Positions 4,039-38,245 of a DNA stretch of 38,245 nucleotides are shown piece by piece (position 1 is the stretch's first letter; the number at the start of each line of letters is the position of its first letter). The notes beneath the pieces were generated by a model. The model ran no database searches. It saw only the letters and a program-made list of their open reading frames with translations, and had not been told where the DNA came from. The translations under genes and the position numbers were made by a program. Origin of the DNA: a virus. The stretch is taken from positions 1-38,245 of IMG/VR virus record IMGVR_UViG_3300033407_000062; one strand, given 5' to 3'.

Positions 4039-4115
4039 GGCCTTACTCCTAACAAAACGCTCCCCCGCTCGGTGGATGATACCGAACGAGAGAGCAGAGG
4101 TATTGTACTTTATTT

Positions 4116-4136
4116 GTGATCAATCATCCTGATCAC
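4116..4136. promoter_or_regulatory. operator-like palindrome GTGATCA-n7-TGATCAC just downstream of the putative promoter
   Basis: 7-bp perfect inverted repeat, read directly. Confidence 0.4.
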
Positions 4137-4142
4137 TTCCAC

Positions 4143-4171
4143 ATTGTACACCTGTTTCTAAACGGATGCAA
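4143..4171 (-). promoter_or_regulatory. sigma70-like promoter for the FtsK-like gene (-35 TTGCAT, 17 nt, -10 TACAAT)
   Basis: Reverse complement of 4166-4171 and 4143-4148; the spacer was counted as 17 nt. Confidence 0.5.
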
Positions 4172-4249
4172 TAGGCAATCTTTTTTTCGTGTCCCGCTCA
4201 CCTGCCCCATCACAACGCTGGACGGGATCGTGGTCGTTACCACTTATCT

Positions 4250-4292
4250 AGTTGTCTATACGACTTAATCAGTCTAGACAACTTAATCAGTC
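4250..4292. promoter_or_regulatory. operator-like repeat cluster: 9-bp inverted repeat AGTTGTCTA/TAGACAACT plus 12-bp direct repeat ACTTAATCAGTC x2
   Basis: Inverted repeat at 4250-4258 and 4275-4283. Direct repeats at 4263-4274 and 4281-4292. Confidence 0.45.
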
Positions 4293-4577
4293 GTCGCCAA
4301 TGTCGGCGCGTTCCTGCCAGTCGTAGCTCTCCCAATCCTCTGGGGCTTCTGGTTCGGTGACTTCGCCATCGTTTACATCGTCGGGGTCTGTTGTGACTTC
4401 CAGCGAATTCGACATCCATAGACAGTAAGCCATCCCGCCGCGCGCTCCCGCATCCGCGTATTCGTCGGCAAGCTGCACCCAATCGGCGCAGGTCTGATCC
4501 TTGCGGAATAGCAGCGCCTTTTTCTTTTTTGCCAACGCAATAAGAACGGGGTCGGATAATACAGAGGTTGATTTCAT
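4287..4577 (-). CDS. hypothetical acidic protein
   Basis: 96-aa ORF with ordinary composition and a 4-nt overlap with the upstream gene. Preferred over the Arg-rich 116-aa alternative frame. Confidence 0.5.
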   Translation of the reverse strand: MKSTSVLSDPVLIALAKKKKALLFRKDQTCADWVQLADEYADAGARGGMAYCLWMSNSLEVTTDPDDVNDGEVTEPEAPEDWESYDWQERADIGDD

Positions 4578-4876
4578 CGCATGTCACCTATTATCTTTGC
4601 CATTTCTTCGGGAGTCTCAACAACCCAAAAATCAATATTCAATTCGGCGCAAAACTTCATCAGGTCTTTTTCATCGTCCGTAAGTTTGCGCTTGGATGGC
4701 GGCTGCATGGGGTTCTTGACTTCTACAAATGACATCCAATCGAGTATCAGAATATCGGCGCCGAAGCCAGGAGGGAGCAGCTTGAAGCGAAGACCAGCGC
4801 GGGACAGTACCGCCGCGATAAGCGGCTCGTTCAAATCACGCTTGCCTGCCTGAAAATACTTGCTTGCCCTGCTCAT
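4574..4876 (-). CDS. small PD-(D/E)XK nuclease, VRR-NUC-like (possible resolvase)
   Basis: GADILILD....VEVK motif followed by ..FWVVETPEEM, the usual VRR-NUC layout. Confidence 0.55.
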   Translation of the reverse strand: MSRASKYFQAGKRDLNEPLIAAVLSRAGLRFKLLPPGFGADILILDWMSFVEVKNPMQPPSKRKLTDDEKDLMKFCAELNIDFWVVETPEEMAKIIGDMR

Positions 4877-5010
4877 CTTTTACCGCCAATATTCGCAGCG
4901 ACCACCCATACCAGCGGGACGTCATACGCTTTGCCGTTGAATATATGCGTATGCGTCGTAATGAGCATATCCAGGAATTCCAGATAACAAACGGGGCAGA
5001 TTAGTTTCAT
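4873..5010 (-). CDS. hypothetical 45-aa protein (MKLICPVCYLEF...)
   Basis: Internal ATG forms an ATGA overlap with the stop of the upstream 60-aa ORF. The longer 107-aa version has an Arg/His-rich out-of-context N-terminus. Confidence 0.4.
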   Translation of the reverse strand: MKLICPVCYLEFLDMLITTHTHIFNGKAYDVPLVWVVAANIGGKR

Positions 5011-5189
5011 TTCGCCGCCTCGTAATGCTCTGCCCGTCTCTGCATAGCCTCGGACGCGGCGGGCATATCCAGCAGACGAAAGGCGACCGCCGCCATTCTG
5101 TACAGGGCGGGGTCGCTGCCACGCTCTGCGATGGCGCGCAGGGATTGCGCCTGCTCGATGGTCGGGGTGTTGGGGATGGTGATGTTCAC
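5007..5189 (-). CDS. hypothetical 60-aa protein
   Basis: Helical-looking ORF, translationally coupled at both ends. Confidence 0.45.
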   Translation of the reverse strand: MNITIPNTPTIEQAQSLRAIAERGSDPALYRMAAVAFRLLDMPAASEAMQRRAEHYEAAK

Positions 5190-5965
5190 TTCGCACTCCC
5201 TGGACGCTCCATGAGCGGGCGGTAACTGTCGCCCGTCAACTCGACTACGAAGTTCCTGCCGTCCGAGAGTCTATCTGTGATCCTGAAATCAAGATCGCGC
5301 GGGGCAATGTTCCCAGCCATGATGGTAACAAATCCTTCGCCGCGCTCTGTGCCTGCTTCGTGGCGTTTATTGACCACATGAAAGAACTGCTCTACCTTGA
5401 ATTCAGTGGATCGCTCGGTCGTGAGTTCGTCAATCGCCAGTAAAGGATACGAAATAAATTTATCCTGCATCTCCATAATTCGCCGCTGTGGTTCGTCGTC
5501 ATCGAACGCGGAGCGCATCTGGTCGAGTATGTCTTTCTGAGTCGTCAGATGAAATATACCGCGCCCATCCCGACCCCATCTCGCACACGCGATCTGTAAC
5601 AGTTTACTCTTGGCAAGCCCTGCCCCGCCGTAGAGATAGCCGACGCCGTTCCCGTAATCGAGCAGGTCTTTGATTGCGCGGATCGCTTCGGCCACATTCT
5701 CGCGGTCTTTGATTTCGTTCCAGTCTGCCGATCTGATCTCCGCCGCTGTTAGTCCGTGGCCGTTGAAGATGGAGCTTTCAGGGGGCAGGTTCGGACACGG
5801 TGAGGTTTTACCGAAGCGGGGGTCTCCGAACTCGACATCGAAGCGGACGTAACCGACGCCGCCGCAGACCTCACAGTCGGGAGTGCATAACATTCTCGCG
5901 GATGCGCTTGGGTCTCTGGAGCCGACCCATTTCCCGGCTGTAATAACATCCTTTATATTTTTCAT
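5186..5965 (-). CDS. DnaC/IstB-like AAA+ helicase-loader protein with N-terminal Cys cluster
   Basis: P-loop-like GGAGLAKSK, Walker B LLAIDEL, and position directly after a DnaD-like gene. Confidence 0.65.
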   Translation of the reverse strand: MKNIKDVITAGKWVGSRDPSASARMLCTPDCEVCGGVGYVRFDVEFGDPRFGKTSPCPNLPPESSIFNGHGLTAAEIRSADWNEIKDRENVAEAIRAIKDLLDYGNGVGYLYGGAGLAKSKLLQIACARWGRDGRGIFHLTTQKDILDQMRSAFDDDEPQRRIMEMQDKFISYPLLAIDELTTERSTEFKVEQFFHVVNKRHEAGTERGEGFVTIMAGNIAPRDLDFRITDRLSDGRNFVVELTGDSYRPLMERPGSAK

Positions 5966-6783
5966 TAGATTTTCACGCTTTCCGCATTTGCCATTTCTGC
6001 CTTAAGTTTTGCTTTCTTCGCTGCCAATTCCGCCGTGAAGTTATCTTTCGCGGGCGCCTGGGGTGTGGCATTGAACTTGGATTTATTTTGCTTCGGGTTT
6101 TTTCTCGGAGCAGGATACCCGTCACGCTCCCAACCGCGCAGGATACCATCGACATAACTTGAGTTGTGCTTGCTGGTCGCTTCCTGTGCCGTTGCCAGTG
6201 CAACCGCTTTGAGTATCCATTCCACGCTGTGGATTTCCAGCCAGGTATCAAATAGGTCAGCCGATCCGCTTTTTAGACCTCCGCCTTGAAGGGTTGCGAT
6301 TGCATTTGAGACGGTTGCGAAATCTTCATCTGTATATATATTATGGGTAGGGACGGATGAGGATGGATAGGGTGACTCTGGTACACTAGTTTTTGCCTCA
6401 GAGTCACTAGTTTTTGCCTCAGAGTCACTAGTTTTTGGTCTACCGTTCTTTGACCTCTTCTTGGGTAAATTTCCTAATTTATTGACCATTACGGAATAGT
6501 TATTTGTCCCGTATATGCTTGTCCCGGCTAGTCGCATATAACCATTCTCGATCAATGCCCTTACCACTCGGATAACTGTTCGCCTTGTCACGCTAGATTT
6601 CTTTGCCAATGTCTCAAAACTATTCCAGCTATTCTCCCCGAAATCGTCAGATGAATCGGCGATGGATAAAAGAACGATCTTTGCAGTATGTGACGCGACT
6701 TTTACTATCTTGCCTTTTTTACCTTTGTATTCAAGCGATTGTATGTCTGTCCAAAACACACGACCCATAACTGTTACGCTCAT
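5965..6783 (-). CDS. replication initiator/organiser: N-terminal winged-HTH plus C-terminal DnaD-like domain
   Basis: SSVTRRTVIRVVRALIENGYM is HTH-like. SSYVDGILRGWERDGYP is a DnaD/DnaB_2-like motif. Confidence 0.65.
   Translation of the reverse strand: MSVTVMGRVFWTDIQSLEYKGKKGKIVKVASHTAKIVLLSIADSSDDFGENSWNSFETLAKKSSVTRRTVIRVVRALIENGYMRLAGTSIYGTNNYSVMVNKLGNLPKKRSKNGRPKTSDSEAKTSDSEAKTSVPESPYPSSSVPTHNIYTDEDFATVSNAIATLQGGGLKSGSADLFDTWLEIHSVEWILKAVALATAQEATSKHNSSYVDGILRGWERDGYPAPRKNPKQNKSKFNATPQAPAKDNFTAELAAKKAKLKAEMANAESVKI
6372..6438. repeat. iteron-like repeats inside the initiator gene: 21-bp unit CACTAGTTTTTGCCTCAGAGT x2.6 plus inverted GTGACTCTG/CAGAGTCAC
   Basis: Units at 6384-6404, 6405-6425 and 6426-6438. 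Inverted arm at 6372-6380 versus 6399-6407. The repeats encode KTSDSEAKTSDSEAKTS. Confidence 0.7.
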
Positions 6784-8511: not shown

Positions 8512-8621
8512 GCCCAACGGCTTGCGTTACCCGCAGGGGCGAGAACGCAAGACCATAAATTTATTTGAAGACTTCATCATCTGTCACAGCCAGCCCCTGT
8601 CGGGTGCACGCTTTGTTAGGC
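8512..8621 (-). repeat. 110-bp inverted-repeat-ended element, copy 1 (covers the last ~20 codons and stop of the GNAT-like gene)
   Basis: Its reverse complement aligns over all 110 nt with 17910-18019. The last 43 nt are identical, the first 37 nt match 34/37, and the centre has diverged. Confidence 0.85.
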
Positions 8622-9064
8622 ATCGTAGGGACTACTTCCCATAAAGTCTTTTGCTCAATCGGGTGTGTGTCTACTCGCGGACGAGCTGTTCTATTCCACG
8701 TTCCGCCGCCCGCTTCGCCCAAACTGCGCCAGTTTGCAGATACAAGAGATGTGCCCGGCTCTGATTGCAAGGTGTAGGTAATTACGCGCTTATAACCAAG
8801 AGCAAAGGCGGCTCGGCTTGCAGCTCCGTAGAGCATTGACGGCGCGTTCTTTGTGCCATCGGTGGCGCAGCGTGTGACTTCAAGCGTCCAACCATCATCC
8901 AACATTCGAGCAACTGGACGCCCTACCGTGATTACGCCTACAACTTTTTCGCCATCATTCACGGCGATACCAAACTTCCAGCCTTGCGGCGGTAAGTGGT
9001 GACGATGCACGAGCTCAATAAACTTGCACGCTTCGGGGTATGTTATGGGCTGTAGATTCAACAT
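8561..9064 (-). CDS. GNAT-fold-like protein of the prophage-associated XF1762-like family (recalled from memory)
   Basis: Pattern HRHH.PP.G..F...V......VGV..VGRPVAR.LDDG.T.EVTR....G..NA.S.LYGA..RAA.ALGY.R..TY. Confidence 0.5.
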   Translation of the reverse strand: MLNLQPITYPEACKFIELVHRHHLPPQGWKFGIAVNDGEKVVGVITVGRPVARMLDDGWTLEVTRCATDGTKNAPSMLYGAASRAAFALGYKRVITYTLQSEPGTSLVSANWRSLGEAGGGTWNRTARPRVDTHPIEQKTLWEVVPTMPNKACTRQGLAVTDDEVFK

Positions 9065-9073
9065 TTCTTAGAT

Positions 9074-9096
9074 GCCTAACGGCAAGCGTTACCCGC
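9074..9096 (-). repeat. gene-junction motif copy (sense reading GCGGGTAACGCTTGCCGTTAGGC)
   Basis: Contains the TAA stop of 9089-9316 and lies 10 nt upstream of ATG 9064. Confidence 0.75.
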
Positions 9097-9316
9097 CCGC
9101 CGTGTTCGTAGAATCCGCCGCGCTGACCAGAGCCGAAGGAGGGTCGGTGTGCACGCATTGTTCGGCGTCTTTCACAATTGGGAAATCACACTCATAACAA
9201 CGCGACTTTGTTGGCTTGCGGGGGGATGTGACCCATTGCTCATGACCACATTCCAACTCACATAACCACTGTTTTTTATTGAGCGGGGATTTATCAGCCC
9301 GCAAAACTTTTACCAT
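9089..9316 (-). CDS. hypothetical Zn-ribbon protein
   Basis: 75-aa ORF with CELECGH and CYEC pairs. Confidence 0.5.
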   Translation of the reverse strand: MVKVLRADKSPLNKKQWLCELECGHEQWVTSPRKPTKSRCYECDFPIVKDAEQCVHTDPPSALVSAADSTNTAGG

Positions 9317-9339: not shown

Positions 9340-9362
9340 GCCGAACGATTTGCGTTAGCGGC
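9340..9362 (-). repeat. gene-junction motif copy, diverged (sense GCCGCTAACGCAAATCGTTCGGC)
   Basis: Aligned by eye to the other copies; lies 24 nt upstream of ATG 9316. Confidence 0.5.
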
Positions 9363-9412
9363 GATGTGGTGGACACCACCGCTAAAATTCAAAGGTTTCA
9401 CGACTTTCTTCA

Positions 9413-9471
9413 CGCGCCCCGTTCGGTGGACAAGCCACCCCGTTCTTTGGGGTGAGCGCAGCTCCACCGAA
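9413..9471 (-). repeat. 59-bp structured intergenic repeat, copy 1
   Basis: Its reverse complement is identical at all 59 nt to 18314-18372. Confidence 0.9.
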
Positions 9472-9499
9472 TAGCGCGAGCGTAAGCGGAAATGCCCGT

Positions 9500-9736
9500 T
9501 CATGGAAGCGGCGCATCCGTCCCGCATACATCGCAGTAAACACTACGATCTTCGAGCAAGGCTTTACACTCGGAACAATACCTAGCCGCTGGAATGGGTG
9601 TTTCCGCTTCACGCAGAGTTGGGCTGCGCGTGTCTAGCCAGTCCGCAAACTCTTTCAAAACCGTGTATTGCGACTCAGAAATACTGTACTCAGTAACATT
9701 GTTCATGTAGATAGCAAGTTCATCATCATACGACAT
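9500..9736 (-). CDS. hypothetical Zn-ribbon protein (78 aa, start MSYDDEL)
   Basis: Internal ATG preceded by AAAGGAAAAAGG. Contains CSEC....CDVCG. The 3' end (PLP-stop) is shared with 18425-18661. Confidence 0.5.
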   Translation of the reverse strand: MSYDDELAIYMNNVTEYSISESQYTVLKEFADWLDTRSPTLREAETPIPAARYCSECKALLEDRSVYCDVCGTDAPLP

Positions 9737-9803
9737 TTGCAACACCTTTTTCCTTTCATCCAAAGCGCAGGTCAATCTCTGCGTTTTCGCTCGCGCTATT
9801 GGG

Positions 9804-9850
9804 CTGACCAAGCCCCCCGCTCTTTGGGGAGTGAGCGCAGCTCCACCGAA
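9804..9850 (-). repeat. structured intergenic repeat, diverged copy 3
   Basis: Sense reading TTCGGTGGAGCTGCGCTCACTCCCCAAAGAGCGGGGGGCTTGGTC. The first 21 nt are identical to the other copies. Confidence 0.75.
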
Positions 9851-9921
9851 CTAGGTACTCGGTTGACAATGTCAGTTTTTTGCATAAATTACTGACATTG
9901 CCCCGATTAGTGACGGGGTTA

Positions 9922-11134: not shown

Positions 11135-11266
11135 TTAGTTCTGGACAACCCTCACGCCGATGTTATGTGCTTTTGCCTCGGCGAGCGAGTCATACTTCTT
11201 GCAGGCAACCCCGTTCGTGCAGAGCCACCAAGAGCCGTCAATCTTTTCGAGTGTGTAGTCGGGCAT
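11135..11266 (-). CDS. hypothetical 43-aa protein (MPDYTLEKIDGSWWLCTNGVACKKYDSLAEAKAHNIGVRVVQN)
   Basis: Not in the ORF track. It starts with the same 24-nt RBS/start block as the 115-aa gene. Confidence 0.4.
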   Translation of the reverse strand: MPDYTLEKIDGSWWLCTNGVACKKYDSLAEAKAHNIGVRVVQN

Positions 11267-11287
11267 TGTTATTTCCTTTTCGCAAGT
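11264..11287. repeat. 24-bp perfect direct repeat, copy 1 (CATTGTTATTTCCTTTTCGCAAGT)
   Basis: Identical to 11614-11637. The two copies exactly bracket gene 11269-11616. Confidence 0.9.
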
Positions 11288-11616
11288 GTGGTATAGAGTC
11301 CAGTCACTTCGGTGAATAACTCTTGAAGCATATCGTTATAAATTCCTTCGTGCGTTGAAACTTCCTTGAATGATGCACCGCGTATCTTGAAGAATGTTAC
11401 CGTGTAGGTGTCCATTGCATCGAGTACGATCTTGATATGGTTAGCATTACGGCTTCCCATAAATTTGAAAGCCAGATTTGCGCTTTCCGCTTTTTCATCG
11501 TAGGTGATGAAGCGTGCGCCAGTCATGGCGATGAATTGACGCCCGCCGAGTTGGTTCATTATTTCCATCGCCTGGTATTTACGTTCTGAGATTTCAGTTG
11601 TCGCTTCGGTTGTCAT
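11269..11616 (-). CDS. conserved hypothetical phage/plasmid protein (115 aa)
   Basis: First gene after the divergent early promoter; globular-looking sequence (..MEIMNQLGGRQFIAMTGA..). Confidence 0.6.
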   Translation of the reverse strand: MTTEATTEISERKYQAMEIMNQLGGRQFIAMTGARFITYDEKAESANLAFKFMGSRNANHIKIVLDAMDTYTVTFFKIRGASFKEVSTHEGIYNDMLQELFTEVTGLYTTLAKRK

Positions 11617-11637
11617 TGTTATTTCCTTTTCGCAAGT
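11614..11637. repeat. 24-bp perfect direct repeat, copy 2
   Basis: Identical to 11264-11287. Confidence 0.9.
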
Positions 11638-12098: not shown

Positions 12099-12692
12099 AT
12101 GAAGCCGATCACCTGGACAAATACCCAGTGTAAATTATCACAACTCAAAGAATGGGATAAGAACCCCGTGCGGATTTCTGGCGACGACCTGAAACACCTG
12201 GCCGAGAGCGTCAAGAAGTTTCGAGGCGTCCTGCCGTATGTCGCAGCGGGGCCGATGGTCAAGGGAAGTTATCCACTACTCGACGGACACCAACGCAAGC
12301 GCGCGGAGTTGGAAGTAAACAAAGTCGCGCCCGATCTGCTTGTCGATGTGCGTGTCCCGTCCAGAAAGTTGACGGCGAAGGAACGCTCCGAGATCGTGAT
12401 CCGCCTGCGAAAAAATCAGGGAGAATTCGACGATAAATTACTGCTTGAAAATTTCAAAGACTTCCCCATGATTGAATTCGGTTTCAGTGAAAAGGAATTG
12501 AAGGACTTCGGTTTCGATCCGCCTGAGAGCAAGGACGCAGAGCCTGAGATAGACCGCGCGGCGGAGTTGTTGAAGAAGTGGAAGGTAAAGACGGGCGACT
12601 TGTTCGCTATCGGTGACCATCGCTTGATATGCGGCGACTGTACTGACGCGGCGGTAGTGGCGCGGGTGATGGGGGGGAGAAGGCGCGAATGA
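12099..12692 (+). CDS. ParB-like nuclease-domain protein (N-terminal half of a ParB-MTase architecture)
   Basis: ..LLDGHQRKRAE.. ParB/Srx-like motif. The C-terminus ..GDHRLICGDCTDAAVVARVMGG is the usual linker that precedes TDPPY in fused ParB-methylases. Confidence 0.65.
   Translation: MKPITWTNTQCKLSQLKEWDKNPVRISGDDLKHLAESVKKFRGVLPYVAAGPMVKGSYPLLDGHQRKRAELEVNKVAPDLLVDVRVPSRKLTAKERSEIVIRLRKNQGEFDDKLLLENFKDFPMIEFGFSEKELKDFGFDPPESKDAEPEIDRAAELLKKWKVKTGDLFAIGDHRLICGDCTDAAVVARVMGGRRRE
12671..12677. repeat. G7 homopolymer at the ParB-domain/MTase junction
   Basis: Read directly. One extra G would fuse the two ORFs in frame. Confidence 0.9.
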
Positions 12693-13354
12693 CTATTACA
12701 GATCCGCCGTGGAATGTTGCAATTGGTACAGACAGAAATCCGCGCCACAGACAAAGAGAAGGTCTCCAGAACGACAATATGTCGGACGATGATTATTCTT
12801 TATTTGTCGATGCTTTTATATCGTCCATTGAGCAGAATTGTGCAGGAGATGTTTACTGCAAGGTTGCGTCTGAATACATGGACATTATTGGTGGTATTTT
12901 TAGGGAAAAGAAGTTTCATTGGTCAGCCACTGTCATTTGGGTAAAAGATATATTTGTTTTGGGTAGGTCGAAATACCACAGGAGATACGAGCCACTCTGG
13001 TATGGGTGGCACAGTAAATCAAAGAGTTCCTTCTGTGACGCGCGCGATTTGGACGATGTTTGGGAAATCAAGCGTCCACGTGTTAGTGAGGAACACCCAA
13101 CCATGATGCCCGTTGAGTTACCAGAACGCGCAATTAGAAATTCAAGCAAAGCAGGAGATGTTGTATTCGAGCCATTCGTTGGCTCCGGCACCACCCTCGT
13201 TGCCTGTCAGAACTTAGGTAGGCGCGGACGCGGTATTGAAATAAGTCCAGCTTATTGCGCCGTTACCCTCGAACGTATGGCGACGGCATTTCCAAAACTA
13301 AAAATAACCAAACTCCCTAAGAAAAAGAAGTCATTAAGTCGTGTAGACAACTAA
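12689..13354 (+). CDS. N6-adenine/N4-cytosine DNA methyltransferase (beta-class order: DPPW then FxGxG)
   Basis: MTITDPPWNV at the N-terminus; EPFVGSGTTLVACQNLGRRGRGIEI near the C-terminus. Confidence 0.8.
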   Translation: MTITDPPWNVAIGTDRNPRHRQREGLQNDNMSDDDYSLFVDAFISSIEQNCAGDVYCKVASEYMDIIGGIFREKKFHWSATVIWVKDIFVLGRSKYHRRYEPLWYGWHSKSKSSFCDARDLDDVWEIKRPRVSEEHPTMMPVELPERAIRNSSKAGDVVFEPFVGSGTTLVACQNLGRRGRGIEISPAYCAVTLERMATAFPKLKITKLPKKKKSLSRVDN

Positions 13355-16789: not shown

Positions 16790-16880
16790 ACCTTGCGCGT
16801 TTTTGAATTGTGTATTACAATTGCCGTATAAAACATAGTTCGGCGGCTTCCTTGCCAGCCGAATACGCAAGGAGAATATC

Positions 16881-17132
16881 ATGTCTGGATTTATGAGTAA
16901 CTGTCCATTTGGCGATCATGGCGAAGCGTTTTTGTGGCATGGAAGCGGTAACGACGAAATAGATGTTGCCGTTGTTGAACTCATGCAGTTGTCAGAGTTG
17001 GATGAAAAAACGGCTCTTGAAATTGCAGATGAAATCGGCGCATGTTTATCACGCCGCCGAACAATGCTTGCACCCGACAAGGGGCAGGCGGCGGTCGTGA
17101 AAGATAATCAGGTCTTTGCCCCTTGCGGGTAA
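16881..17132 (+). CDS. hypothetical 83-aa acidic protein
   Basis: AAGGAG RBS. Its stop codon lies inside a junction motif. Confidence 0.5.
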   Translation: MSGFMSNCPFGDHGEAFLWHGSGNDEIDVAVVELMQLSELDEKTALEIADEIGACLSRRRTMLAPDKGQAAVVKDNQVFAPCG

Positions 17133-17147
17133 AGCCAGCCGTTAGGC
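17125..17147 (+). repeat. gene-junction motif copy (GCGGGTAAAGCCAGCCGTTAGGC)
   Basis: Contains the TAA of 16881-17132. ATG 17158 follows 10 nt later. Confidence 0.75.
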
Positions 17148-17157
17148 AACTAAAACA

Positions 17158-17970
17158 ATGAACCCTTATTATCAAAAAGATGGCATCACGATCTACAATG
17201 GCGATTGCCGCGAAGTCATGGCGGGCTTGCCTGATAATTCGTGTGGTCTAACGGTCACATCTCCGCCTTACAACATGCGAACCCGCATCCGTAATGGCGA
17301 GTACACCACCCGCGAACAGACAGACCACTTTAGCAGGAAGTATGAGCATTTTAGCGACGCACTTTCACCACAAGAGTATTATGAATTTCACAGTCACGCT
17401 ATCCGTGAAATGATGAGAATTTCAAATACGGTGCTTTGGAATATTCAGATTGTCACAGGTAGCAAAGAAGCCGTGTTCCGCATGATTGGCGATTTTGCCA
17501 AAGAAATAAAAGACATCATCGTGTGGGATAAAGGTCATGGTCAGCCAGCCATGCACGATAACGTAATCAATAAAGCGGCTGAATTGATTTTGATTTTTGA
17601 GAAAAACGCAACGGCAGGTAGAGAGTTTTCAAGGTCGTTTTTTCCTCGTGGTGAAATGACAGACATCTGGCGAATGAAGCGCGGCAATAATACCGAAAGT
17701 CACGGCGCAACTTTCCCGCTTCATTTGGCGCAAAAGGCTATCACTGGCTGGAGCGCAGAGAATGACGTTATCCTTGATCCATTCATGGGTACAGGTACAA
17801 GCCTAATAGCCGCAAGGAACGAAGGACGAAAAGCGGTAGGCATTGAAATCTCCGAAGAATATTGTGAGTTGGCGGTAAAGGGTCTGGCGCAAATGTCGCT
17901 CTTTACGTTGCCTAACACAGCGTCCACCCGACAGGGGCGGGCTGTGGCTCAAAATGAGTTATTCGGATAA
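17158..17970 (+). CDS. second DNA methyltransferase (N4/N6 family, SPPY motif)
   Basis: VTSPPYNM, then DPFMGTGTSLIAARNEGRKAVGIEI near the C-terminus. Confidence 0.8.
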   Translation: MNPYYQKDGITIYNGDCREVMAGLPDNSCGLTVTSPPYNMRTRIRNGEYTTREQTDHFSRKYEHFSDALSPQEYYEFHSHAIREMMRISNTVLWNIQIVTGSKEAVFRMIGDFAKEIKDIIVWDKGHGQPAMHDNVINKAAELILIFEKNATAGREFSRSFFPRGEMTDIWRMKRGNNTESHGATFPLHLAQKAITGWSAENDVILDPFMGTGTSLIAARNEGRKAVGIEISEEYCELAVKGLAQMSLFTLPNTASTRQGRAVAQNELFG

Positions 17971-18019
17971 TTATCAGGTCTTGCGTTCTCGCCCCTGCGG
18001 GTAACGCAAGCCGTTGGGC
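17910..18019 (+). repeat. 110-bp inverted-repeat-ended element, copy 2 (covers the last ~20 codons and stop of the MTase; its 3' arm 17997-18019 is a junction-motif copy)
   Basis: Aligned by eye with the reverse complement of 8512-8621. Confidence 0.85.
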
Positions 18020-18040
18020 TGACCCCGAAGGAAAATAAAC

Positions 18041-18304
18041 ATGAGCGAACATAATCCGAACGCATGGCAAGATGGTTTTGACGCATGGCAAAATGGATAC
18101 GATGACGCAATGTACGATGGTATTGATACGTCAAGCGAAATGCCGTGCAAATGCGAAGCGTGCCTGAAAGGTTACGCCGAAGGTCAAGAAGCCGCCTTGA
18201 AAGAAATCTTTGCTGGCAGTCAGTCTGCCCAACAAAGCGTGCCCCCGACTGTTGCTACAGTCGCCGCGCAAGAAGTCAATTTGGATGCCCGCAACAGCGG
18301 GTAA
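18041..18304 (+). CDS. hypothetical 87-aa protein
   Basis: GAAGGA RBS. Its stop codon lies inside a junction motif. Confidence 0.5.
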   Translation: MSEHNPNAWQDGFDAWQNGYDDAMYDGIDTSSEMPCKCEACLKGYAEGQEAALKEIFAGSQSAQQSVPPTVATVAAQEVNLDARNSG

Positions 18305-18319
18305 CGCAAACCGTTCGGT
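18297..18319 (+). repeat. gene-junction motif copy (GCGGGTAACGCAAACCGTTCGGT)
   Basis: Contains the TAA of 18041-18304 and runs into the 59-bp repeat. Confidence 0.75.
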
Positions 18320-18372
18320 GGAGCTGCGCTCACCCCAAAGAACGGGGTGGCTTGTCCACCGAACGGGGCGCG
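18314..18372 (+). repeat. 59-bp structured intergenic repeat, copy 2
   Basis: TTCGGTGGAgctgcgctCACCCCaaagaacGGGGTGgcttgTCCACCGAAcggggcgcg, with nested inverted repeats read directly. Confidence 0.9.
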
Positions 18373-18424
18373 GGATGTAATTCCGTTTTATCGGCTCTTT
18401 GAGAGCAGAAAGGTGTGGCTAAAA

Positions 18425-18661
18425 ATGGTAATGTGTTGGAGAGATAATCACGTTTTTTTGTGGGCAGACTATAATACTCTTGGCATCCCCGAAGGCTTGA
18501 TTTGCACGTGCGGCAAGCATCGCCTGACACGCTCCGCCGAACAACGGAATGATGCGGAAACGGGCATTCCAGCGGCTTGCGAGCATATGAATCGTATTCA
18601 TGGGACGGGGAACGATTGGTGTCTCGACTGTGGTTACTTCCCATTGCCGCCGCTTCCATGA
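18425..18661 (+). CDS. hypothetical Zn-ribbon protein (78 aa, start MVMCWRD)
   Basis: Contains CTCG and CLDCG pairs. The longer 104-aa ORF would start inside the repeat. Confidence 0.45.
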   Translation: MVMCWRDNHVFLWADYNTLGIPEGLICTCGKHRLTRSAEQRNDAETGIPAACEHMNRIHGTGNDWCLDCGYFPLPPLP

Positions 18662-18997
18662 ACGCCCGTTCCGCATATCCCGCGCCCCGTTAGACCCCTT
18701 CTTTCCATGAAGGGCGAACTTTGAAAAAATGAATGTTACGGCGTGCTTGAGCAACACTTTGGAGAAATCCATTCCGTGGATATGCCATAGCAGAGTAAGT
18801 CGGTAAAATTCCGACCCGCTGTTTCAGGCTTAGACCCCGCGTGTAGCGCGTAAAAAACTTCGGGCTTAGTAGCTTGTATTTCCGAGCGCGGGGTCTAACA
18901 AAGCATGCACCTGACGCTGGGGCAGTGTGCGAAATCTCAAACATTATCAAGGCTGTGGCGTTATCAGCGCGGACGGTTTCACCGTCCGAACCCCAGC

Positions 18998-19020
18998 GCA
19001 GGTAATGCCAGCCGTTAGGC
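18998..19020 (+). repeat. gene-junction motif copy (GCAGGTAATGCCAGCCGTTAGGC)
   Basis: ATG 19030 follows 9 nt later. The flank ..GCCAGCCGTTAGGCAAaTAAAACATG nearly repeats the one before ATG 17158. Confidence 0.7.
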
Positions 19021-19029
19021 AAATAAAAC

Positions 19030-19278
19030 ATGCACACTCACCCCAAGCCATTCACATTCACATTCACAAGATCGAAGCGGAAGCACTTGCGCCCGCCGAG
19101 ATTTTTTGTCATCTGCTCAGAGTGTGGCGTAGAGTTGCAGGCCGTCGAGGATGTGGACGGTTCGATCCATACATTCAGCACCAACCGCAGGCGGACGCGG
19201 AAACGGGTATACTCTTTCAGGCTGACCCCTGAGTCTGCCGAACGGGTTAGGGCTATGCAAAAAACAGGAGAGCTGTAA
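19030..19278 (+). CDS. hypothetical basic protein (82 aa)
   Basis: Contains CSECG. Coupled to the next gene. Confidence 0.45.
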   Translation: MHTHPKPFTFTFTRSKRKHLRPPRFFVICSECGVELQAVEDVDGSIHTFSTNRRRTRKRVYSFRLTPESAERVRAMQKTGEL

Positions 19279-19280
19279 CG

Positions 19281-19613
19281 ATGAGTATTATTGCTGATAT
19301 AAATACGGCTGTGATGGATGCGTATAAAAAGACAGGCGACTACCCCACAAAGATACACATAACCGATTCAGCGTATTATAAACTTTTGCAAGATGACGCT
19401 AAATACATGGGACAATGGACAGTATCCCCACCTCCACAAGATACGATTATGGGGGTTGAATGCCAACGATGGAGAGACGGGATGTTGGGTGACAGAGAGT
19501 TTGCACTGGATTATCAGGACGACTTAAAAAACGCTTACGCTTTTGGTTATGTTGTCCGAGATAAAGAGATAAAAAAAACCGAAATTAAATACCTGCACGT
19601 CGAAAGAATCTAA
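19281..19613 (+). CDS. hypothetical 110-aa protein
   Basis: GGAGAG RBS. Its stop abuts the ATG of the MuF-like gene. Confidence 0.55.
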   Translation: MSIIADINTAVMDAYKKTGDYPTKIHITDSAYYKLLQDDAKYMGQWTVSPPPQDTIMGVECQRWRDGMLGDREFALDYQDDLKNAYAFGYVVRDKEIKKTEIKYLHVERI

Positions 19614-21698
19614 ATGTTAGACCCCGACTTCCTTGACACACTCCCAGCCGAAGCCGTCGAGCTTTATCAGGAATTTGCCGACGGCGTGATCTCCGACCTT
19701 GCGCGTCGAATAGGTAATATGTCCTATTCATCCGCAGGCTGGCAGGCGCAGCGGTTACAGGAAGCGGGGCTTGCCTATCAGGACATCATCAAGCGCGTCG
19801 CACAACTGACAGGAAAATCAGAGGCGGCCATTCGGGGGATTTTCTACCGCGCGGGCGTCCGCTCCATGAGGTTCGACGAAAAGATATACAAGGCGGTGGG
19901 CATTGACCTGCCGCTCACGCTATCCCCCGCGATGCAGGACGTGCTGAATATAGGCATTCTCAAAACGAACGGGATACTCAAGAACCTGACACTCACGACC
20001 GCGCTATCAGGGCAACAGGAGTTCATTCGCGCCAGTGACATTGCCTATCTCGAGGTGACCAGCGGGACACGCGATTACAACAGCGCGATAAAAAAGGCGG
20101 TCACGAGCCTGGCGGATCGCGGGATCACATCCGTCAATTATCAAAGCGGCCACACGGATCAGATCGACGTAGCCGTGCGTAGAAACGTGCTAACAGGCAC
20201 GCAACAGACAGCGGGCGCGTTACAGCAGCAGCGCATGGATGAAGTCGGCGTTAATCTGGTCGCCGTGTCCGCTCATGCGGGAGCGCGTCCGTCACATCAG
20301 TTATGGCAGGGTAAGGTTTATTCCAGAACAGGCAGGCAGGGAAAATATAAAGACTTCGTAACTGAAACAGGCTACGGGACGGGACCAGGGCTTGGAGGTT
20401 GGAACTGTGTCATCGGCGATACCATGGTTTCAAGCCTTGCTAAACGTGCCGCTTACCGCCGTGAGTATTCCGGTGAGTTGATCGTCATTCACACCGCCGC
20501 AGGCAAGGAGCTTACCGTCACTCCGTATCACCCAATACTCACCGACCATGGATGGGTCGCGGCGAAGTTTCTTGACCATGGAGATTATGTAATCTGCCGC
20601 CCCGCGCTCGATGGGTCTTTTGAATCCAGCCCAGACGTAGACCAAAGCGAATCCAGAATTGAGGATGTATTTGATTCTCTTTCTGTAAGCGGGGCGATCT
20701 TCGACCTTCCTATTTCGTCCGGTAACTTCCACGGCGAGATTCCCGATGGCAAAGTCAACGTTGTATTTTCCGATGGCTTTTTGAGGGATGGCGTCGATCC
20801 CGTGATCGAGCAGGAGTTGGAAGAGGTCGGCTTCGGCTTTCCCGCGCGTTTTTCCAGTACGCTCATTTCCGAGCGCGCGCTTCCTAAGATCGTTGTACGT
20901 TCTCTTCATGCCTCTGACCGCATCGTGAGCGGCTTCGGTGAGGTCGATTCTCTCGTCGGCAGTCATTCTAGCGAGCCTGTTGACCATGGCTTCAGACCTA
21001 TCTTCGGCGATAGGTACTCCGAGTTTGTCGAGATACCTTCCGACAGCCCCCTCAGATATTCCAGTTTTGAAAGCGATTTCGTTCTTCCACATACCAGATT
21101 TATACATTTCAATCAAATCATCAGGGGTAACATTGAAGCGCCTTTTGATATATCCTTTCCAGTCATTTCCAGTGTAGACCCCGTTACGACGCAAGCAGTT
21201 TTGGATCGCATGAACAGAACAGCGATTCTTATCCGCGATGAATTGCAGGGTGTGGTTAGAGAGGTAGAGCTTGACTACATTGTCAGTATCGAGCGGAAGC
21301 CTTTTACGGGTCATGTTTATAATCTCCACACAGAAGGTGAATGGTATTCTGCAAATGGGATTATAACGCATAACTGCCGACATTCTCAATATCCATTCTA
21401 CGAGGGCATATCTGAGAACGTCTACAATCAGGAGATGCGCGAACAACTGGCTAATAAAACCGTCACGCTGAACGGCGTCGAGATGTCGCAGTACGATGCG
21501 TCACAGGTGCAGCGCGGTCTGGAGCGTAAAATAAGATTTTGGAAGCGGCGCAAGATAGCCATCGACGCGACAGGCTTGGACATAGACACATCCGTAGAGA
21601 CTACCAAAATACGTTATTATCAGAGTCAATTACGCGAATTTGTAAGGCAGACAAAACTTCCCCGCCAGAATGTGCGCGAGCAGGTTGTTGGCCAGTGA
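19614..21698 (+). CDS. head-morphogenesis / minor capsid protein (MuF, SPP1 gp7-like) interrupted by a 323-aa intein
   Basis: The exteins join as ..GPGLGGWN|CRHSQYPF.., a typical MuF conserved core. Intein blocks A, B, F and G are recognised (see the 20406-21374 feature). Confidence 0.8.
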   Translation: MLDPDFLDTLPAEAVELYQEFADGVISDLARRIGNMSYSSAGWQAQRLQEAGLAYQDIIKRVAQLTGKSEAAIRGIFYRAGVRSMRFDEKIYKAVGIDLPLTLSPAMQDVLNIGILKTNGILKNLTLTTALSGQQEFIRASDIAYLEVTSGTRDYNSAIKKAVTSLADRGITSVNYQSGHTDQIDVAVRRNVLTGTQQTAGALQQQRMDEVGVNLVAVSAHAGARPSHQLWQGKVYSRTGRQGKYKDFVTETGYGTGPGLGGWNCVIGDTMVSSLAKRAAYRREYSGELIVIHTAAGKELTVTPYHPILTDHGWVAAKFLDHGDYVICRPALDGSFESSPDVDQSESRIEDVFDSLSVSGAIFDLPISSGNFHGEIPDGKVNVVFSDGFLRDGVDPVIEQELEEVGFGFPARFSSTLISERALPKIVVRSLHASDRIVSGFGEVDSLVGSHSSEPVDHGFRPIFGDRYSEFVEIPSDSPLRYSSFESDFVLPHTRFIHFNQIIRGNIEAPFDISFPVISSVDPVTTQAVLDRMNRTAILIRDELQGVVREVELDYIVSIERKPFTGHVYNLHTEGEWYSANGIITHNCRHSQYPFYEGISENVYNQEMREQLANKTVTLNGVEMSQYDASQVQRGLERKIRFWKRRKIAIDATGLDIDTSVETTKIRYYQSQLREFVRQTKLPRQNVREQVVGQ
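20406..21374 (+). mobile_element. class-1 intein (Cys1 ... His-Asn, +1 Cys) with no recognisable in-frame endonuclease domain
   Basis: CVIGDTMV (block A), TVTPYHPILTDHGWVAAKFLDHGDYV (block B), GHVYNLHTEGEWYSANGIITHN followed by C (blocks F/G). Confidence 0.8.
20430..21314 (-). CDS. antisense homing-endonuclease-like gene inside the intein: two HTH-like repeats plus a DUF559/Vsr-like PD-(D/E)XK domain
   Basis: GGAG lies 9 nt before ATG 21314. Contains ..NEIAFKTGISEGAVGRYLDKLG.. and ..QKAIGKYNVDFAIGNLAVEVTGRNRKVEDRPAYRKRIKYILNSGFALVYVW.. Confidence 0.7.
   Translation of the reverse strand: MTRKRLPLDTDNVVKLYLSNHTLQFIADKNRCSVHAIQNCLRRNGVYTGNDWKGYIKRRFNVTPDDLIEMYKSGMWKNEIAFKTGISEGAVGRYLDKLGVPIAEDRSEAMVNRLARMTADERIDLTEAAHDAVRGMKRTYNDLRKRALGNERTGKTRGKAEADLFQLLLDHGIDAIPQKAIGKYNVDFAIGNLAVEVTGRNRKVEDRPAYRKRIKYILNSGFALVYVWAGFKRPIERGAADYIISMVKKLRRDPSMVGEYWVIRSDGKLLACGGVNDDQLTGILTAVSGTFSKA
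21360..21389 (-). promoter_or_regulatory. sigma70-like promoter for the antisense endonuclease gene (-35 TTGAGA, 18 nt, -10 TATAAT)
   Basis: Reverse complement of 21384-21389 and 21360-21365. It overlaps the intein C-terminal splice-junction codons. Confidence 0.5.
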
Positions 21699-22657
21699 CA
21701 TCATTACGGATATTGATATTCTCGAACGATGACGAAATTCTACAATTCGTTAAAGATGTCCTGCTCGATACAGGGTTCGATTCAATACTCAAGAGGGTGG
21801 AGGCTGATGTAGAGTTGGTCGCCTCTCTGAACGCCGAAGGCTGGGATCTGGTTCTGATCGACGCCTACCTGAACGGAAGCACAACGCCCGAGGAGATCAT
21901 CACGGTACTGAATGACCGCGAGCAGGAAGTCCCTTATCTGGTAATGTACGGGATGATTCGGGACATGACCGCGCTGCAGCTATTGCAGGTGAGTAATATA
22001 AATTATGTGTCGAAGGAAAACATCGCCTCATTGGGGCTGTCCATTAAAAAGGAACTGACAGCGGCGGGGGACAGGATGCGGGAGCGGATCGACCTCGAAC
22101 AGGCTACACTCCTTATTATTCAGGCGTTCGGTACCGCGCTGGAATTACGCGACCATGAAACGCGCGGGCATACGTTACGGGTCACGAAGCTGGCGATCCA
22201 ACTGGCGCGGGCTGTCGGATACCCTCGTCAAGGACTGCTCAATTTACATTGGGGAGCGCTCCTGCATGACATCGGCAAGATCGGCGTCCCTGACAATATC
22301 CTGCTGAAAGAGGGGGCATTGGATGACAAGGAACGACAGATAATAAGGTCCCATCCTGGACTAGCCTACAACCTGCTCTCGCCCATCCCATCATTGACCA
22401 AAGACATCAATATTCCATTCTGCCATCATGAGAAATGGGACGGGACAGGCTACCCGCGAAAGCTAAAGGGAAAGGCGATCCCGCTGGAAGCTAGGATATT
22501 CTCCATCGTGGATGTCTACGACGCCTTGACCAGCGACCGGCCTTATCGGGATGCGTGGAAAAAGGCGCGCGCGCTTGATTACATAAACGCCGAGCGACGC
22601 TTCTCATTCGACCCTGAGATCGTCCCCGTATTTCTGGATATGATGAAAGTAACCTAA
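21695..22657 (+). CDS. REC-like receiver plus HD-GYP phosphodiesterase (RpfG-like); start uncertain (GTG 21695 in a GTGA overlap is proposed)
   Basis: RILIFSNDDE...WDLVLID...YVSK looks like a receiver domain. HDIGKIGVP and HHEKWDGTGYP are HD-GYP signatures. Confidence 0.75.
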   Translation: MTSLRILIFSNDDEILQFVKDVLLDTGFDSILKRVEADVELVASLNAEGWDLVLIDAYLNGSTTPEEIITVLNDREQEVPYLVMYGMIRDMTALQLLQVSNINYVSKENIASLGLSIKKELTAAGDRMRERIDLEQATLLIIQAFGTALELRDHETRGHTLRVTKLAIQLARAVGYPRQGLLNLHWGALLHDIGKIGVPDNILLKEGALDDKERQIIRSHPGLAYNLLSPIPSLTKDINIPFCHHEKWDGTGYPRKLKGKAIPLEARIFSIVDVYDALTSDRPYRDAWKKARALDYINAERRFSFDPEIVPVFLDMMKVT

Positions 22658-35072: not shown

Positions 35073-36059
35073 ATGTCTGAATTAATTATGACCGAAGAGG
35101 CGGGCACGCCGTCAACACCAGGCAGCAGTAAATGGAAGTTATATCCTAAATCGGATGGATGGTATGCGCTGGATGATGCTGGCTTGGAAATAGGCCCTTT
35201 GGCAGTTGGGGGATCGTCCGACCCAGCAGTAGGCACGATGTCAAATGGCAAACTCTCGGTCACGGTTGTTTCTAATGACCTGATAGTCGCACTCAAGACG
35301 CTGGCTGGCGCAGACCCATCAGCAGGCGACCCCGTACTGGCGAATATCAATGGAGTGATTTACAGCATCGAAGCAGCGTTGAACCAATTCATCCCATCTG
35401 GGATGAATTGGTTCAACGCTGGCGCGGCTGAGACGGCGACTTTGCTCGTGCCGTATTTTGTGTATCTCGTTGACGACAGCGGCACACCCGCTTTGACCGT
35501 TGCCCGCAAATCTCATTATCGAGTAGTGGCGAGCGACATGTCCACAACAACGAGCGACACACATATCTACGGTTACAGCGGCTTTACCGATGGCGACGAG
35601 ATGATGAACATCGGTTATTTTGAAGCCACGTTGTCAGCGGGTGCGGGGTACACGTGGACAGTGCCGACGTTCACATCCGATAACCTGAGACATCAGCCGA
35701 CACATTCAAGCAGGTGGATGACATGGACGCCCGTTATCACTGGATATTCAGCTAATCCAACAGGAGAGGCTTACTTATACAGGGTGTACGGCGAATCTCA
35801 ATATGAGGTTGATATGCTGGAAGATACCCCGGGCACAAGCAACCTGACAACCAAAACCTATACACTACCGTTTATAGCGACGGCGAAAACCTACATCATC
35901 TTGGCGTCTCCACAAGACAACGGAACACAAAAGGCAGCTGGATTGTTACGGTGTAATTCAGGCTTAAATACGGCCGATGCTTTTCTTTCGGCTTTTGGGG
36001 GCTGGACAAACACAGGGAATGCTAGAATTTTGAGGGCAAAAGGGTTTATCAGGATGTAG
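35073..36059 (+). CDS. tail fibre / receptor-binding protein candidate
   Basis: 328-aa ORF with AGGAG RBS, the last structural gene before the lysis genes. Confidence 0.45.
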   Translation: MSELIMTEEAGTPSTPGSSKWKLYPKSDGWYALDDAGLEIGPLAVGGSSDPAVGTMSNGKLSVTVVSNDLIVALKTLAGADPSAGDPVLANINGVIYSIEAALNQFIPSGMNWFNAGAAETATLLVPYFVYLVDDSGTPALTVARKSHYRVVASDMSTTTSDTHIYGYSGFTDGDEMMNIGYFEATLSAGAGYTWTVPTFTSDNLRHQPTHSSRWMTWTPVITGYSANPTGEAYLYRVYGESQYEVDMLEDTPGTSNLTTKTYTLPFIATAKTYIILASPQDNGTQKAAGLLRCNSGLNTADAFLSAFGGWTNTGNARILRAKGFIRM

Positions 36060-37832: not shown

Positions 37833-38245
37833 ATGGACGAGAAAACAGAAGCACAGATCGGGGCGAAGTGGCTGGCTGAATATAAACTGACCTCGCCGCC
37901 GCCCATCGAAGAGCCCCGATATCTTTTTGTGCTTATCATCATGGCGGCGGTTGTACTGGCGAGCATTGTCGCTCTGGAAGTGTTGACGGCTGAGACAAAG
38001 GATAATTCTGTCACCATCGGCTTGATCCTCGGCTTCGGAGCCACGATCACGACTGGCATACTCACCTACCAAAAAGCGGAGCAGGCAAAAACTCAAAGCG
38101 TCGAGACTCATATCATGGTAAACTCCCGCCTGTCTGAATGGATGCTCGAAGCGAAAGCCTCCTCAAAGGCGGAGGGCGAGATTATCGGACGCACGCAAGC
38201 AAACGAACGTACTGATATGCTGGCGAAAGGCCAGTCCCACGAAGG
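37833..38245 (+). CDS. holin-like membrane protein, 5' part; the ORF crosses the circular junction and ends at 135-137 (140 aa in total)
   Basis: Two hydrophobic helices (YLFVLIIMAAVVLASIVALEVL and VTIGLILGFGATITTGILTY), then a charged tail. It lies directly after the lysis enzymes. Confidence 0.55.
   Translation, partial: MDEKTEAQIGAKWLAEYKLTSPPPIEEPRYLFVLIIMAAVVLASIVALEVLTAETKDNSVTIGLILGFGATITTGILTYQKAEQAKTQSVETHIMVNSRLSEWMLEAKASSKAEGEIIGRTQANERTDMLAKGQSHE
38119..38245. repeat. terminal overlap, exact copy of 1-127
   Basis: Same 127-nt string as the window start. Confidence 0.95.

Follow-up and report, generated by a model that had tools for sequence, protein, structure and literature searches.

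Why should two unrelated proteins, encoded on opposite arms of one phage genome, end alike, and what is the DNA element that forms their ends? In the 38,245-nt stretch of viral DNA analyzed here (the window), positions 17910-18019 on the plus strand and 8512-8621 on the minus strand align over 110 nt without a gap, with 93 of 110 positions identical (84.5%); the copies agree throughout the 3' 43 nt and at 34 of the 5' 37 nt, and have diverged in the centre. Each copy provides the final ~20 codons, stop codon included, of its own gene, namely an N6_N4 DNA methyltransferase (17158-17970) ending ...LPNTASTRQGRAVAQNELFG and an XF1762-family protein (8561-9064) ending ...MPNKACTRQGLAVTDDEVFK. Imperfect inverted repeats form the ends of the element, and the stop codon, starting at element base 59, lies within the predicted hairpin. 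These observations, made in a preliminary description of the sequence, were all borne out, as was its view that the similarity resides in the element at the DNA level and not in the protein, since both family models stop short of the tail (the N6_N4 methyltransferase Pfam domain covers residues 31-241 of 270 and the XF1762 NCBIfam model residues 4-143 of 167). What had been overlooked is that the pair belongs to a series, being two of eight related sites in the window that occupy every junction of two clusters. We consider it very probable that the 110-nt element is an integron attC site ending mobile gene cassettes in two phage CALINs (attC clusters lacking an integrase), a reading carried by features that the sequences demonstrate directly: attC anatomy, covariation, a junction rule and the shuffling of cassettes between contigs.

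The first 127 nt of the window are identical to its last 127 nt, which indicates a circularly assembled or terminally redundant genome of ~38.1 kb. The window is thus a complete tailed-phage genome, and a novel one, as the best match of its terminase in the phage collection is just 50% identical. It encodes a large terminase, an SPP1-type portal, minor capsid protein 2 and a scaffold protein as well as RecT, a replication initiator and a DnaC-like loader, with an early arm running leftward and a late arm running rightward. The GC-skew turn at ~11 kb falls where gene orientation switches and hence holds no separate information on replication or on the attC strand that is exposed.

Two cassette arrays lie in this genome. 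The right-arm array (16838-19020, plus strand) comprises five cassettes between the portal and minor-capsid genes, and the left-arm array (9851-8512, minus strand) comprises four cassettes at the end of the leftward early operon; all cassettes are co-oriented with transcription. By motif searches and a structure-only scan, attC copies in the window are confined to the cassette junctions of these two clusters, each closing a short gene at its 3' end, with the next start codon a few bases further on. The structure-only scan returned 5 sites in the window vs. 0 in 20 shuffles, and the arm motifs gave 0 matches each in 100 shuffles. The features are as follows, with the right-arm array first.

16838-16844, plus: first junction, GTTCGGC (crossover G|TT), after the portal gene
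16839-17141, plus: cassette 1, holding orf83 (16881-17132), ended by E1
17056-17147, plus: attC site E1, 92 nt, 16/16 pairs in the structure scan
17142-18013, plus: cassette 2, holding the N6_N4 DNA methyltransferase
17910-18019, plus: attC site E2, 110 nt, first copy of the element described earlier, ending cassette 2
18014-18313, plus: cassette 3, holding orf87 (18041-18304)
18227-18319, plus: attC site E3, 93 nt, ending cassette 3
18314-18689, plus: cassette 4, ended by E8
18358-18695, plus: atypical site E8, a perfect symmetric inverted repeat enclosing the whole of orf78 (18425-18661), ACCGAAC-GGG-GCGCGGGAT ... ATCCCGCGC-CCC-GTTAGAC
18690-19014, plus: cassette 5, with no convincing ORF
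18893-19020, plus: attC site E4, 128 nt, ending cassette 5
9845-9851, minus: first junction of the left-arm array, GTTCGGT (minus-strand reading)
9467-9812, minus: cassette A, an atypical ORF-enclosing inverted repeat around a zinc-ribbon ORF (9500-9736), GCCCAAT-AGCGCGAGCG ... CGCTCGCGCT-ATTCGGT
9471-9346, minus: cassette B, ORF-less, ended by E7
9340-9427, minus: degenerate or hybrid attC site E7, first box ACCGAAC, canonical 3' arm ...GCTAACGCAAATCGTTCGGC
9345-9080, minus: cassette C, holding orf75 (9089-9316)
9074-9166, minus: attC site E6, 93 nt, with a 1-nt indel in the 5' arm, ending cassette C
9079-8518, minus: cassette D, holding the XF1762-family protein
8512-8621, minus: attC site E5, 110 nt, second copy of the element described earlier, ending cassette D

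Integron integrases act on the bottom strand of an attC in its folded, single-stranded form. Folded as single-stranded DNA, E1, E2 and E4 each form one long imperfect hairpin (z about -3 to -4). The outermost layer consists of 7-nt boxes (AAC on the 5' arm and GTT on the 3' arm), followed by an unpaired spacer (3 vs. 5 nt), a 4-bp helix (GCGT/ACGC), a 2-against-1 internal loop and a 5-bp helix; inward of this helix lie a single bulged A, a variable stem and a variable centre, with site length ranging from 81 to 142 nt across the family. The consensus for attC boxes is RYYYAAC for the first and GTTRRRY for the last. AAC and GTT are found in all seven canonical sites (E1-E7); the first boxes GCCTAAC, GCCCAAC and GTCTAAC fit the consensus while GCCGAAC (E1 and E6) and ACCGAAC (E7) deviate, and the last boxes GTTAGGC and GTTGGGC fit while GTTCGGT and GTTCGGC deviate. 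Family-wide, AAC and GTT are conserved at 98-100%, a figure partly forced by the search pattern. The search pattern that collected the family required matches in both arms, and part of the conservation seen in AAC/GTT and in the arm cores follows from that requirement; the pattern placed no constraint on the box positions or the outer helix, so that the junction rule and the covariation of the outer helix are unaffected. The conserved unpaired bases are all on the 5' arm, namely C16 (89%) and A22 (94%), which correspond to G16 and T22 on the bottom strand; the extrahelical bases of attCaadA7, G16 and T23, project from the arm that faces the cleaved AAC (PMC5027507). Folding energies are similar for the two strands and do not tell top from bottom. 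The canonical sites thus have the hairpin anatomy of an attC; E8 (0 matches for its inverted repeat in 20 shuffles), which has neither spacer nor bulge asymmetry, and the AAT/ATT pair of cassette A, of which equivalents occur in contigs L038, L067 and L019, are symmetric and do not.

A signature of integrons is that crossover takes place between G and TT of the last box, with TTRRRY belonging to the next cassette and pairing with the first box of that cassette's site. Comparing the four variable box bases, which are positions outside the search pattern, we found that the last box of a site was reverse-complementary to the first box of its successor in 73 of 107 adjacent pairs, rising to 44 of 52 for gaps of <400 nt; the two boxes of one and the same site matched in 17 of 148 sites, and random pairs in 9%. 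Such complementarity between neighbours is what crossover at G|TT of the last box leaves behind. Within the window, 8 of 9 junctions obey the rule, the exception being the leader of cassette A. On the right arm, GTTCGGC at 16838 pairs with the first box of E1 (GCCGAAC), the last box of E1 (GTTAGGC) with the first box of E2 (GCCTAAC), and the last box of E2 (GTTGGGC) with the first box of E3 (GCCCAAC), each as its reverse complement; E3 in turn ends in GTTCGGT. A seeming exception from E3 to E4 was resolved by E8, the boxes of which link GTTCGGT of E3 to GTCTAAC of E4. On the left arm, the chain runs from E7 (...GTTCGGC) to E6 (GCCGAAC...GTTAGGC) and on to E5 (GCCTAAC...GTTGGGC). The boxes of E7 fit the rule with both neighbours, and its 5' arm pairs poorly with its own 3' arm. 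The leader of the left-arm array, TTCGGTGGAGCTGCGCTCAC, recurs at 9471 and 18314. Homology breakpoints, as found by comparison with other contigs, are located at 17141, 9076 and 16844.

Cassettes of the window recur on other IMG/VR contigs beside different neighbours, as evidenced by: 1) orf75 together with E6 (cassette C) in L032 (93%), with homology ending at the last box; 2) the methyltransferase gene in L030 (79% nucleotide and 80% amino-acid identity), with homology starting where the last box of E1 does, at 17141; 3) the XF1762-family gene in L007 (98.7% amino-acid identity), with a breakpoint inside the 5' arm of E5; 4) orf87 in L010 (61% amino-acid identity), from 17997 to 18233; 5) E4 together with orf82 in L038 (86%), from 18907 to 19278. 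The last of these marks the end of the right-arm array, where E4 is followed by the resident genes orf82 and minor capsid protein 2, and E4 and orf82 are both kept in L038. The same contig and L067 represent relatives of the phage at this very locus: the end of the portal gene is 95% identical to the window in both, and the start of the head gene is 91% identical in L038. Both match the window up to ...GTATAAA(A)CATAG|TT and then hold different cassettes, L038 with seven canonical attC sites where the window has four. The conserved junction reads ...TTGAAT-N17-TATAAA-ACATAG|TT, of which the TTGAAT-N17-TATAAA preceding 16838 resembles a weak promoter when read by eye, although the sigma-70 scan did not list it; the promoter scan returned no strong promoter-like sites inside the window arrays. 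The portal-protein search for relatives yielded the L038 contig only and a metagenome scan with the 25-nt junction motif one fragment of 1.3 kb, L067; neither found a portal/minor-capsid site empty of cassettes. Phages of Chloroflexota appear to swap cassettes among themselves in this manner.

The comparison of homologues proposed in the preliminary description shows that near-identical copies of both genes elsewhere carry other attC sites and, with them, other tails. The XF1762-family copy in L007 has an attC of another subclass behind it and ends ...TMPNKCVNPTKTTGR*, and the methyltransferase in L030 is followed by a third subclass and ends ...LPNNRLHPTAFGAG...THGGG*, its stop being the TAA of the 3' arm. 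The same gene with another attC behind it therefore has another tail, and the tail is dictated by the attC that follows. As for the two 110-nt sites, E2 and E5 resemble sites of their subclass elsewhere (87% in L030, 83-85% in L027 and 83% in L013), and members of the subclass, at 76-87% identity, occur on no fewer than six further contigs, where the TGAATAA stop block and the non-coding ATTTATGGTCTTGCGTTCTCGC are kept. Since E2 and E5 resemble each other no more than they do subclass sites on other contigs, exchange within the genome is not needed to explain their likeness.

The window encodes no recognizable integron integrase: tblastn with the IntI of virus Rctr41k gave no match at E<1e-3, and family scans found no tyrosine recombinase among the scanned window ORFs. 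Its two attC clusters are therefore CALINs, with no intI next to an array as a complete integron would have. Elsewhere, such a gene does adjoin sites of this design. A distant DNA search with 16790-19300 against 50,697 phage records had a sole match, over E4 alone, in Rctr41k, a virus from a methane-oxidising enrichment culture with terminase, capsid, tail and tape-measure genes. Its array comprises six or more sites built like the window attCs, one of them 77% identical to E4, and just upstream of this array the gene Rctr41k_11, annotated "xerD", matches the integron-integrase model TIGR02249 over its full length with 383 bits (cutoff 265 bits). Two putative viral contigs, L020 (396 bits) and L035 (411 bits), likewise encode a TIGR02249 protein immediately upstream of the array and in the same orientation, and in an Anaerolineales MAG (L049) a TIGR02249 protein (453 bits) adjoins an attC in divergent orientation.

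A strict two-arm pattern matched 38 IMG/VR contigs, and a looser one, run on these 38 contigs together with Rctr41k and the window, gave 148 sites, at most 8 to a locus. Applied to bacteria and archaea at one genome per species, the strict pattern matched 25 loci, 16 of them in Chloroflexota (Anaerolineales, Caldilineales, Chloroflexia and Ca. Villigracilis); cellular arrays lie on contigs of 200-875 kb, as exemplified by L059 with 8 sites in 8 kb, and the other nine cellular loci are mostly on contigs of 2-6 kb. In the plasmid collection, there was no meaningful match to the 110-mer and no similarity to the attCs of mobile integrons. From the shared attC type alone, the host is probably a member of the Anaerolineae/Chloroflexota.

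We surmise from these data that an integron integrase acting at G|TT in the last box would remove and insert cassettes, with the enzyme supplied in trans either by a chromosomal integron of the host (probably Anaerolineae/Chloroflexota) or by a co-infecting phage carrying intI. The ORF of a cassette often extends into the attC, which then provides its C-terminal tail and stop codon. Near-identical genes on different attC sites cannot be produced by crossover at G|TT alone, which argues that homologous recombination takes place between arms too; the ~30-nt conserved arms would permit such ordinary recombination through the phage RecT, re-pairing genes with other attCs. One event of this kind may be a deletion between neighbouring 5' arms, plausibly assisted by RecT.

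Could this second process be the whole story, with the sites serving as homology linkers for RecT-type annealing, modules shuffled without any integron integrase and the likeness to attC ancestral or coincidental? The window does have RecT and no IntI, each array contains its conserved ~30-nt arms as direct repeats, and the near-identical genes on different attC interiors require recombination inside the arms. However, linkers of this sort are not predicted to have four variable box bases complementing the next site instead of their own, and they leave unexplained both the conserved unpaired bases on one arm only and the presence of intI beside such arrays. We regard this account as unlikely, and postulate that arm recombination of the RecT type probably operates in addition to the integrase, not in its place.

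The long stems at every gene end, enclosing the stop codon, might alternatively act in RNA, as terminators or attenuators, RNase III-type processing sites or stabilisers of a polycistronic mRNA, and attC sites are in fact thought to contain weak terminators (Qi et al., PMC9892861). The pairing itself speaks against this. Among 199 unique family members, the 5-bp helix was Watson-Crick paired in 92% (68% with shuffled and 10-29% with slid partners) and the 7-bp helix in 82% (41% with shuffled and 31-37% with slid partners), with 3-4 Watson-Crick pair types at the variable helix positions, as exemplified by the stem GTTGC/GCAAC in E3 where E2 has GGGGC/GCCCC. G·T pairs made up only 1-5%, even though every other pair type was used, and this near-absence of what would be G·U-type pairs in RNA indicates a pairing constraint on DNA. 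T-runs following the stems were not found in the scans; E5 does have a hairpin and T-run behind it (~8497-8470), ahead of a strong promoter (8376-8348), but the scan did not list this hairpin. The window has no Rfam match at gathering thresholds, Rfam having no attC family. With the complementarity between neighbouring boxes and the link to integrases also unaccounted for, a role in RNA appears very improbable as the explanation of these elements.

The preliminary description had favored a MITE-like insertion or a recombination scar that replaced the native 3' ends of both genes. Imperfect terminal inverted repeats, a size of ~110 nt and several copies would indeed suit a non-autonomous transposon or its remnant, but no target-site duplication is seen in the flanks of E2 (..TTTACGTT | TGACCCCG..) or of E5 (..CCTACGAT | GGCATGAT..), no transposase is present, and the copies, instead of being dispersed, sit at every cassette junction and nowhere else, with lengths of 81-142 nt, a variable centre and end boxes that belong to neighbouring units. 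An origin of this kind has to be set aside as next to impossible, and a passive scar gives way to an attC recombination site of gene cassettes.

As a recombination site that is also translated, the attC accounts for the shared tails. ORFs entering a family site stop inside it in 149 of 162 cases and in all three frames (71/61/30), the conserved TAA in GTAACGC providing 81 of the 149 in-site stops and a first-box TAA another 14; within the window, orf83 stops at the TAA of the 3' arm of E1. The attC thus supplies the C-terminal tail together with the stop, and this is why two unrelated proteins end alike. That the tail is instead a functional peptide conserved as protein, such as a tag or targeting signal, would suit the PNTA(S/R)TRQ... 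tails on several otherwise unrelated ORFs but hardly merits belief given the entry in three frames, the near-identical homologues with different tails, family models that end before the tail and stronger conservation in the non-coding 3' half of the site than in its coding half.

Integrons are known chiefly as platforms on which bacteria carry resistance genes and, more recently, anti-phage defence genes. In sedentary chromosomal integrons, as exemplified by the Vibrio cholerae repeats, the attC sites are long (about 90-130 nt) and mutually similar within a lineage. The family described here has in common with such sites the conserved centre, R/L boxes, unpaired spacer and extrahelical bases (PMC5027507), and its arrays likewise hold small, diverse cassettes, mostly of unknown function. 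It differs in that it is common to bacterial chromosomes and many unrelated phages, and in that half of the cassette ORFs span the entire site before stopping at the conserved TAA in its 3' arm. The promoter-early stem-loops (PeSL) of T4-type phages, which carry a promoter and are thought to act by homologous recombination with no known dedicated recombinase, are similar in being repeated stem-loops that flank small accessory ORFs in hyperplastic phage regions, with modular shuffling proposed; unlike them, the sites here are built like attCs, follow the G|TT rule at their junctions and have integron integrases linked to them.

The junction ...CATAG|TT bears on how the locus acquired its first cassette. 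To our knowledge, there is no attI consensus to test against, and an attI-like site or what is left of an attC are equally possible readings of this junction. Integrase-mediated insertion of cassettes outside att sites, at attG, as outlined in a preprint (bioRxiv 10.1101/2022.09.11.507474), could on that outline explain entry of a first cassette at ...CATAG|TT, in a locus with no recognizable attI.

CALINs and a few complete integrons have been described in the genomes of 21 phages, with at least two predicted sites per CALIN, and 5 of 6 phage attCs tested recombined with IntI1 (Qi, Rajabal, Ghaly, Tetu, Gillings 2023, PMC9892861). Phage-borne CALINs are therefore already known, and the window is a further example and not a new type of element. 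As in that survey, attCs and cassettes are found in phage genomes mostly without intI, and the cassettes include N6_N4-type DNA methyltransferases, for which counter-restriction was suggested. Unlike the published set, we describe one homogeneous attC family on 38 IMG/VR contigs with up to 8 sites per locus, two arrays in a single genome, an attC type present in Chloroflexota chromosomes as well, and some putative phages in which intI is oriented as the array; Rctr41k is absent from the main text and one supplement of the survey. The literature that we searched holds neither this attC family nor its link to Chloroflexota. New relative to that literature are the breadth of the family across uncultivated phages, the phage-borne intI oriented with the arrays, including the Rctr41k gene annotated xerD, the pair of arrays in a single phage genome, the cassette differences at one hotspot between related phages, and the symmetric sites that enclose an ORF.

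These data place integron machinery on the phage side at a larger scale than in the one published survey, and suggest concretely how the accessory regions of these phages could have become mosaic. The attC type may also serve as a host-prediction marker for phages of an abundant but poorly cultivated phylum, and for annotation, odd C-terminal tails on unrelated cassette proteins are best read as a translated recombination site. We entertain, as a tentative and rather doubtful extension, that Chloroflexota phages run an integron system of their own, some with intI oriented with the array, in which a common cassette pool rich in orphan DNA methyltransferases (at least five families) would circulate among unrelated phages and host chromosomes as a counter-defence library, expressed from phage operons at fixed hotspots and including undescribed symmetric, ORF-enclosing attC-like sites that obey the G|TT (or A|TT) rule.

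As for what the cassettes carry, ORFs ending in family sites have a median length of 85 residues, and the 129 unique proteins of at least 70 residues fall into 109 clusters. The largest clusters and many of the singletons are DNA methyltransferases of five families (N6_N4, D12, C-5, Dam and MT-A70), which would fit a putative counter-restriction role, as Qi et al. suggested (PMC9892861); such enzymes would defeat restriction systems, and with the right-arm array situated in the late operon, methylation could act on progeny DNA. An ASCH-domain protein is also among the cassette products.

Whole small ORFs were found to be enclosed by perfectly pairing, symmetric inverted repeats at five places, two of them in the window and three on other contigs:

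18358-18695, plus strand, window: the atypical site E8
9467-9812, minus strand, window: the repeat of cassette A
4059-4393, L038, a phage relative
255-654, L067, a phage relative
5598-6001, L019

These repeats comprise the boxes AAC...GTT or AAT...ATT plus 9-11 bp, without spacer or bulge asymmetry, and the outer box is lengthened to 10-11 bp by the first bases of the cassette (TTCGGTGGA / TCCACCGAA). They also keep the rule by which the last box of one attC site is the reverse complement of the first box of the next, as exemplified by L019, where ATTATAC is followed by a site beginning GTATAAC. The ORF-enclosing repeats may represent an undescribed attC variant.

In the 110-nt attC subclass, we noticed that the conserved block GGTCTTGCGTT and the 3'-arm sequence AACGCAAGCC are able to pair with each other, at these positions:

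17981-18012, window
8519-8550, window
also in L038, L007, L014 and other loci

In bottom-strand folds this pairing yields a local hairpin as an alternative, competing structure to the complete attC fold, and the hairpin could modulate folding of the site. A copy of the methyltransferase cassette in another locus (L030, 8160-8200, minus strand) begins at the same GTTAGGCAACTAAAA, preceded by ...CTGTTGAATTATGA, which does not make up a canonical attC arm, and the locus stops at that point; the sequence before this cassette may be an attI-like first position.

Some arrays have integron integrases beside them. In Rctr41k (KX853513.1), the gene product entered in the record under the name 'xerD integrase-like protein' (Rctr41k_11, 4680-5678) is an integron integrase of full length (TIGR02249, 383 bits). 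Integrase and cassette array are co-oriented in Rctr41k and in loci L020 and L035, and an Anaerolineales MAG (L049) shows the classical divergent arrangement.

Besides the cassette enzyme, the phage has a second methyltransferase at 12099-13354. Its ParB-like N-terminal ORF (12099-12692, plus strand; PHROG DNA methyltransferase / ParB-like) shares 4 nt with an N6_N4 methyltransferase ORF (12689-13354, plus strand), and together they look like a ParB-methyltransferase split over two reading frames. A perfect 24-nt direct repeat (11264-11287 and 11614-11637; ACTTGCGAAAAGGAAATAACAATG on the minus strand) gives two consecutive minus-strand genes the same ribosome-binding region and start.

In the head module, the gene for minor capsid protein 2 (PF06152; 19614-21698, plus strand) contains an intein that takes up about residues 279-587 of 694 (Intein_splicing) and interrupts the capsid protein. 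Between this gene and the scaffold gene lies an ORF (21539-22657, plus strand) with a receiver-like N-terminus and, at residues 200-361, a phosphohydrolase domain of the HD_5 / HD-GYP type, a signalling-type gene that is unusual within a head module; its start as listed overlaps the preceding gene, and translation therefore probably begins further downstream.

Positions 1-127 are identical to 38119-38245, indicating a circular assembly or terminal redundancy, which puts the genome length at about 38,118 bp. The replication-initiator gene (5965-6783; HTH_36 + DnaB_2) contains three tandem 21-nt repeats (TGCCTCAGAGTCACTAGTTTTTG; 6373-6437), which may be origin iterons. A 328-aa ORF (35073-36059) contains a perfect palindrome, 23 nt with a centre of 2 nt (35374-35421).
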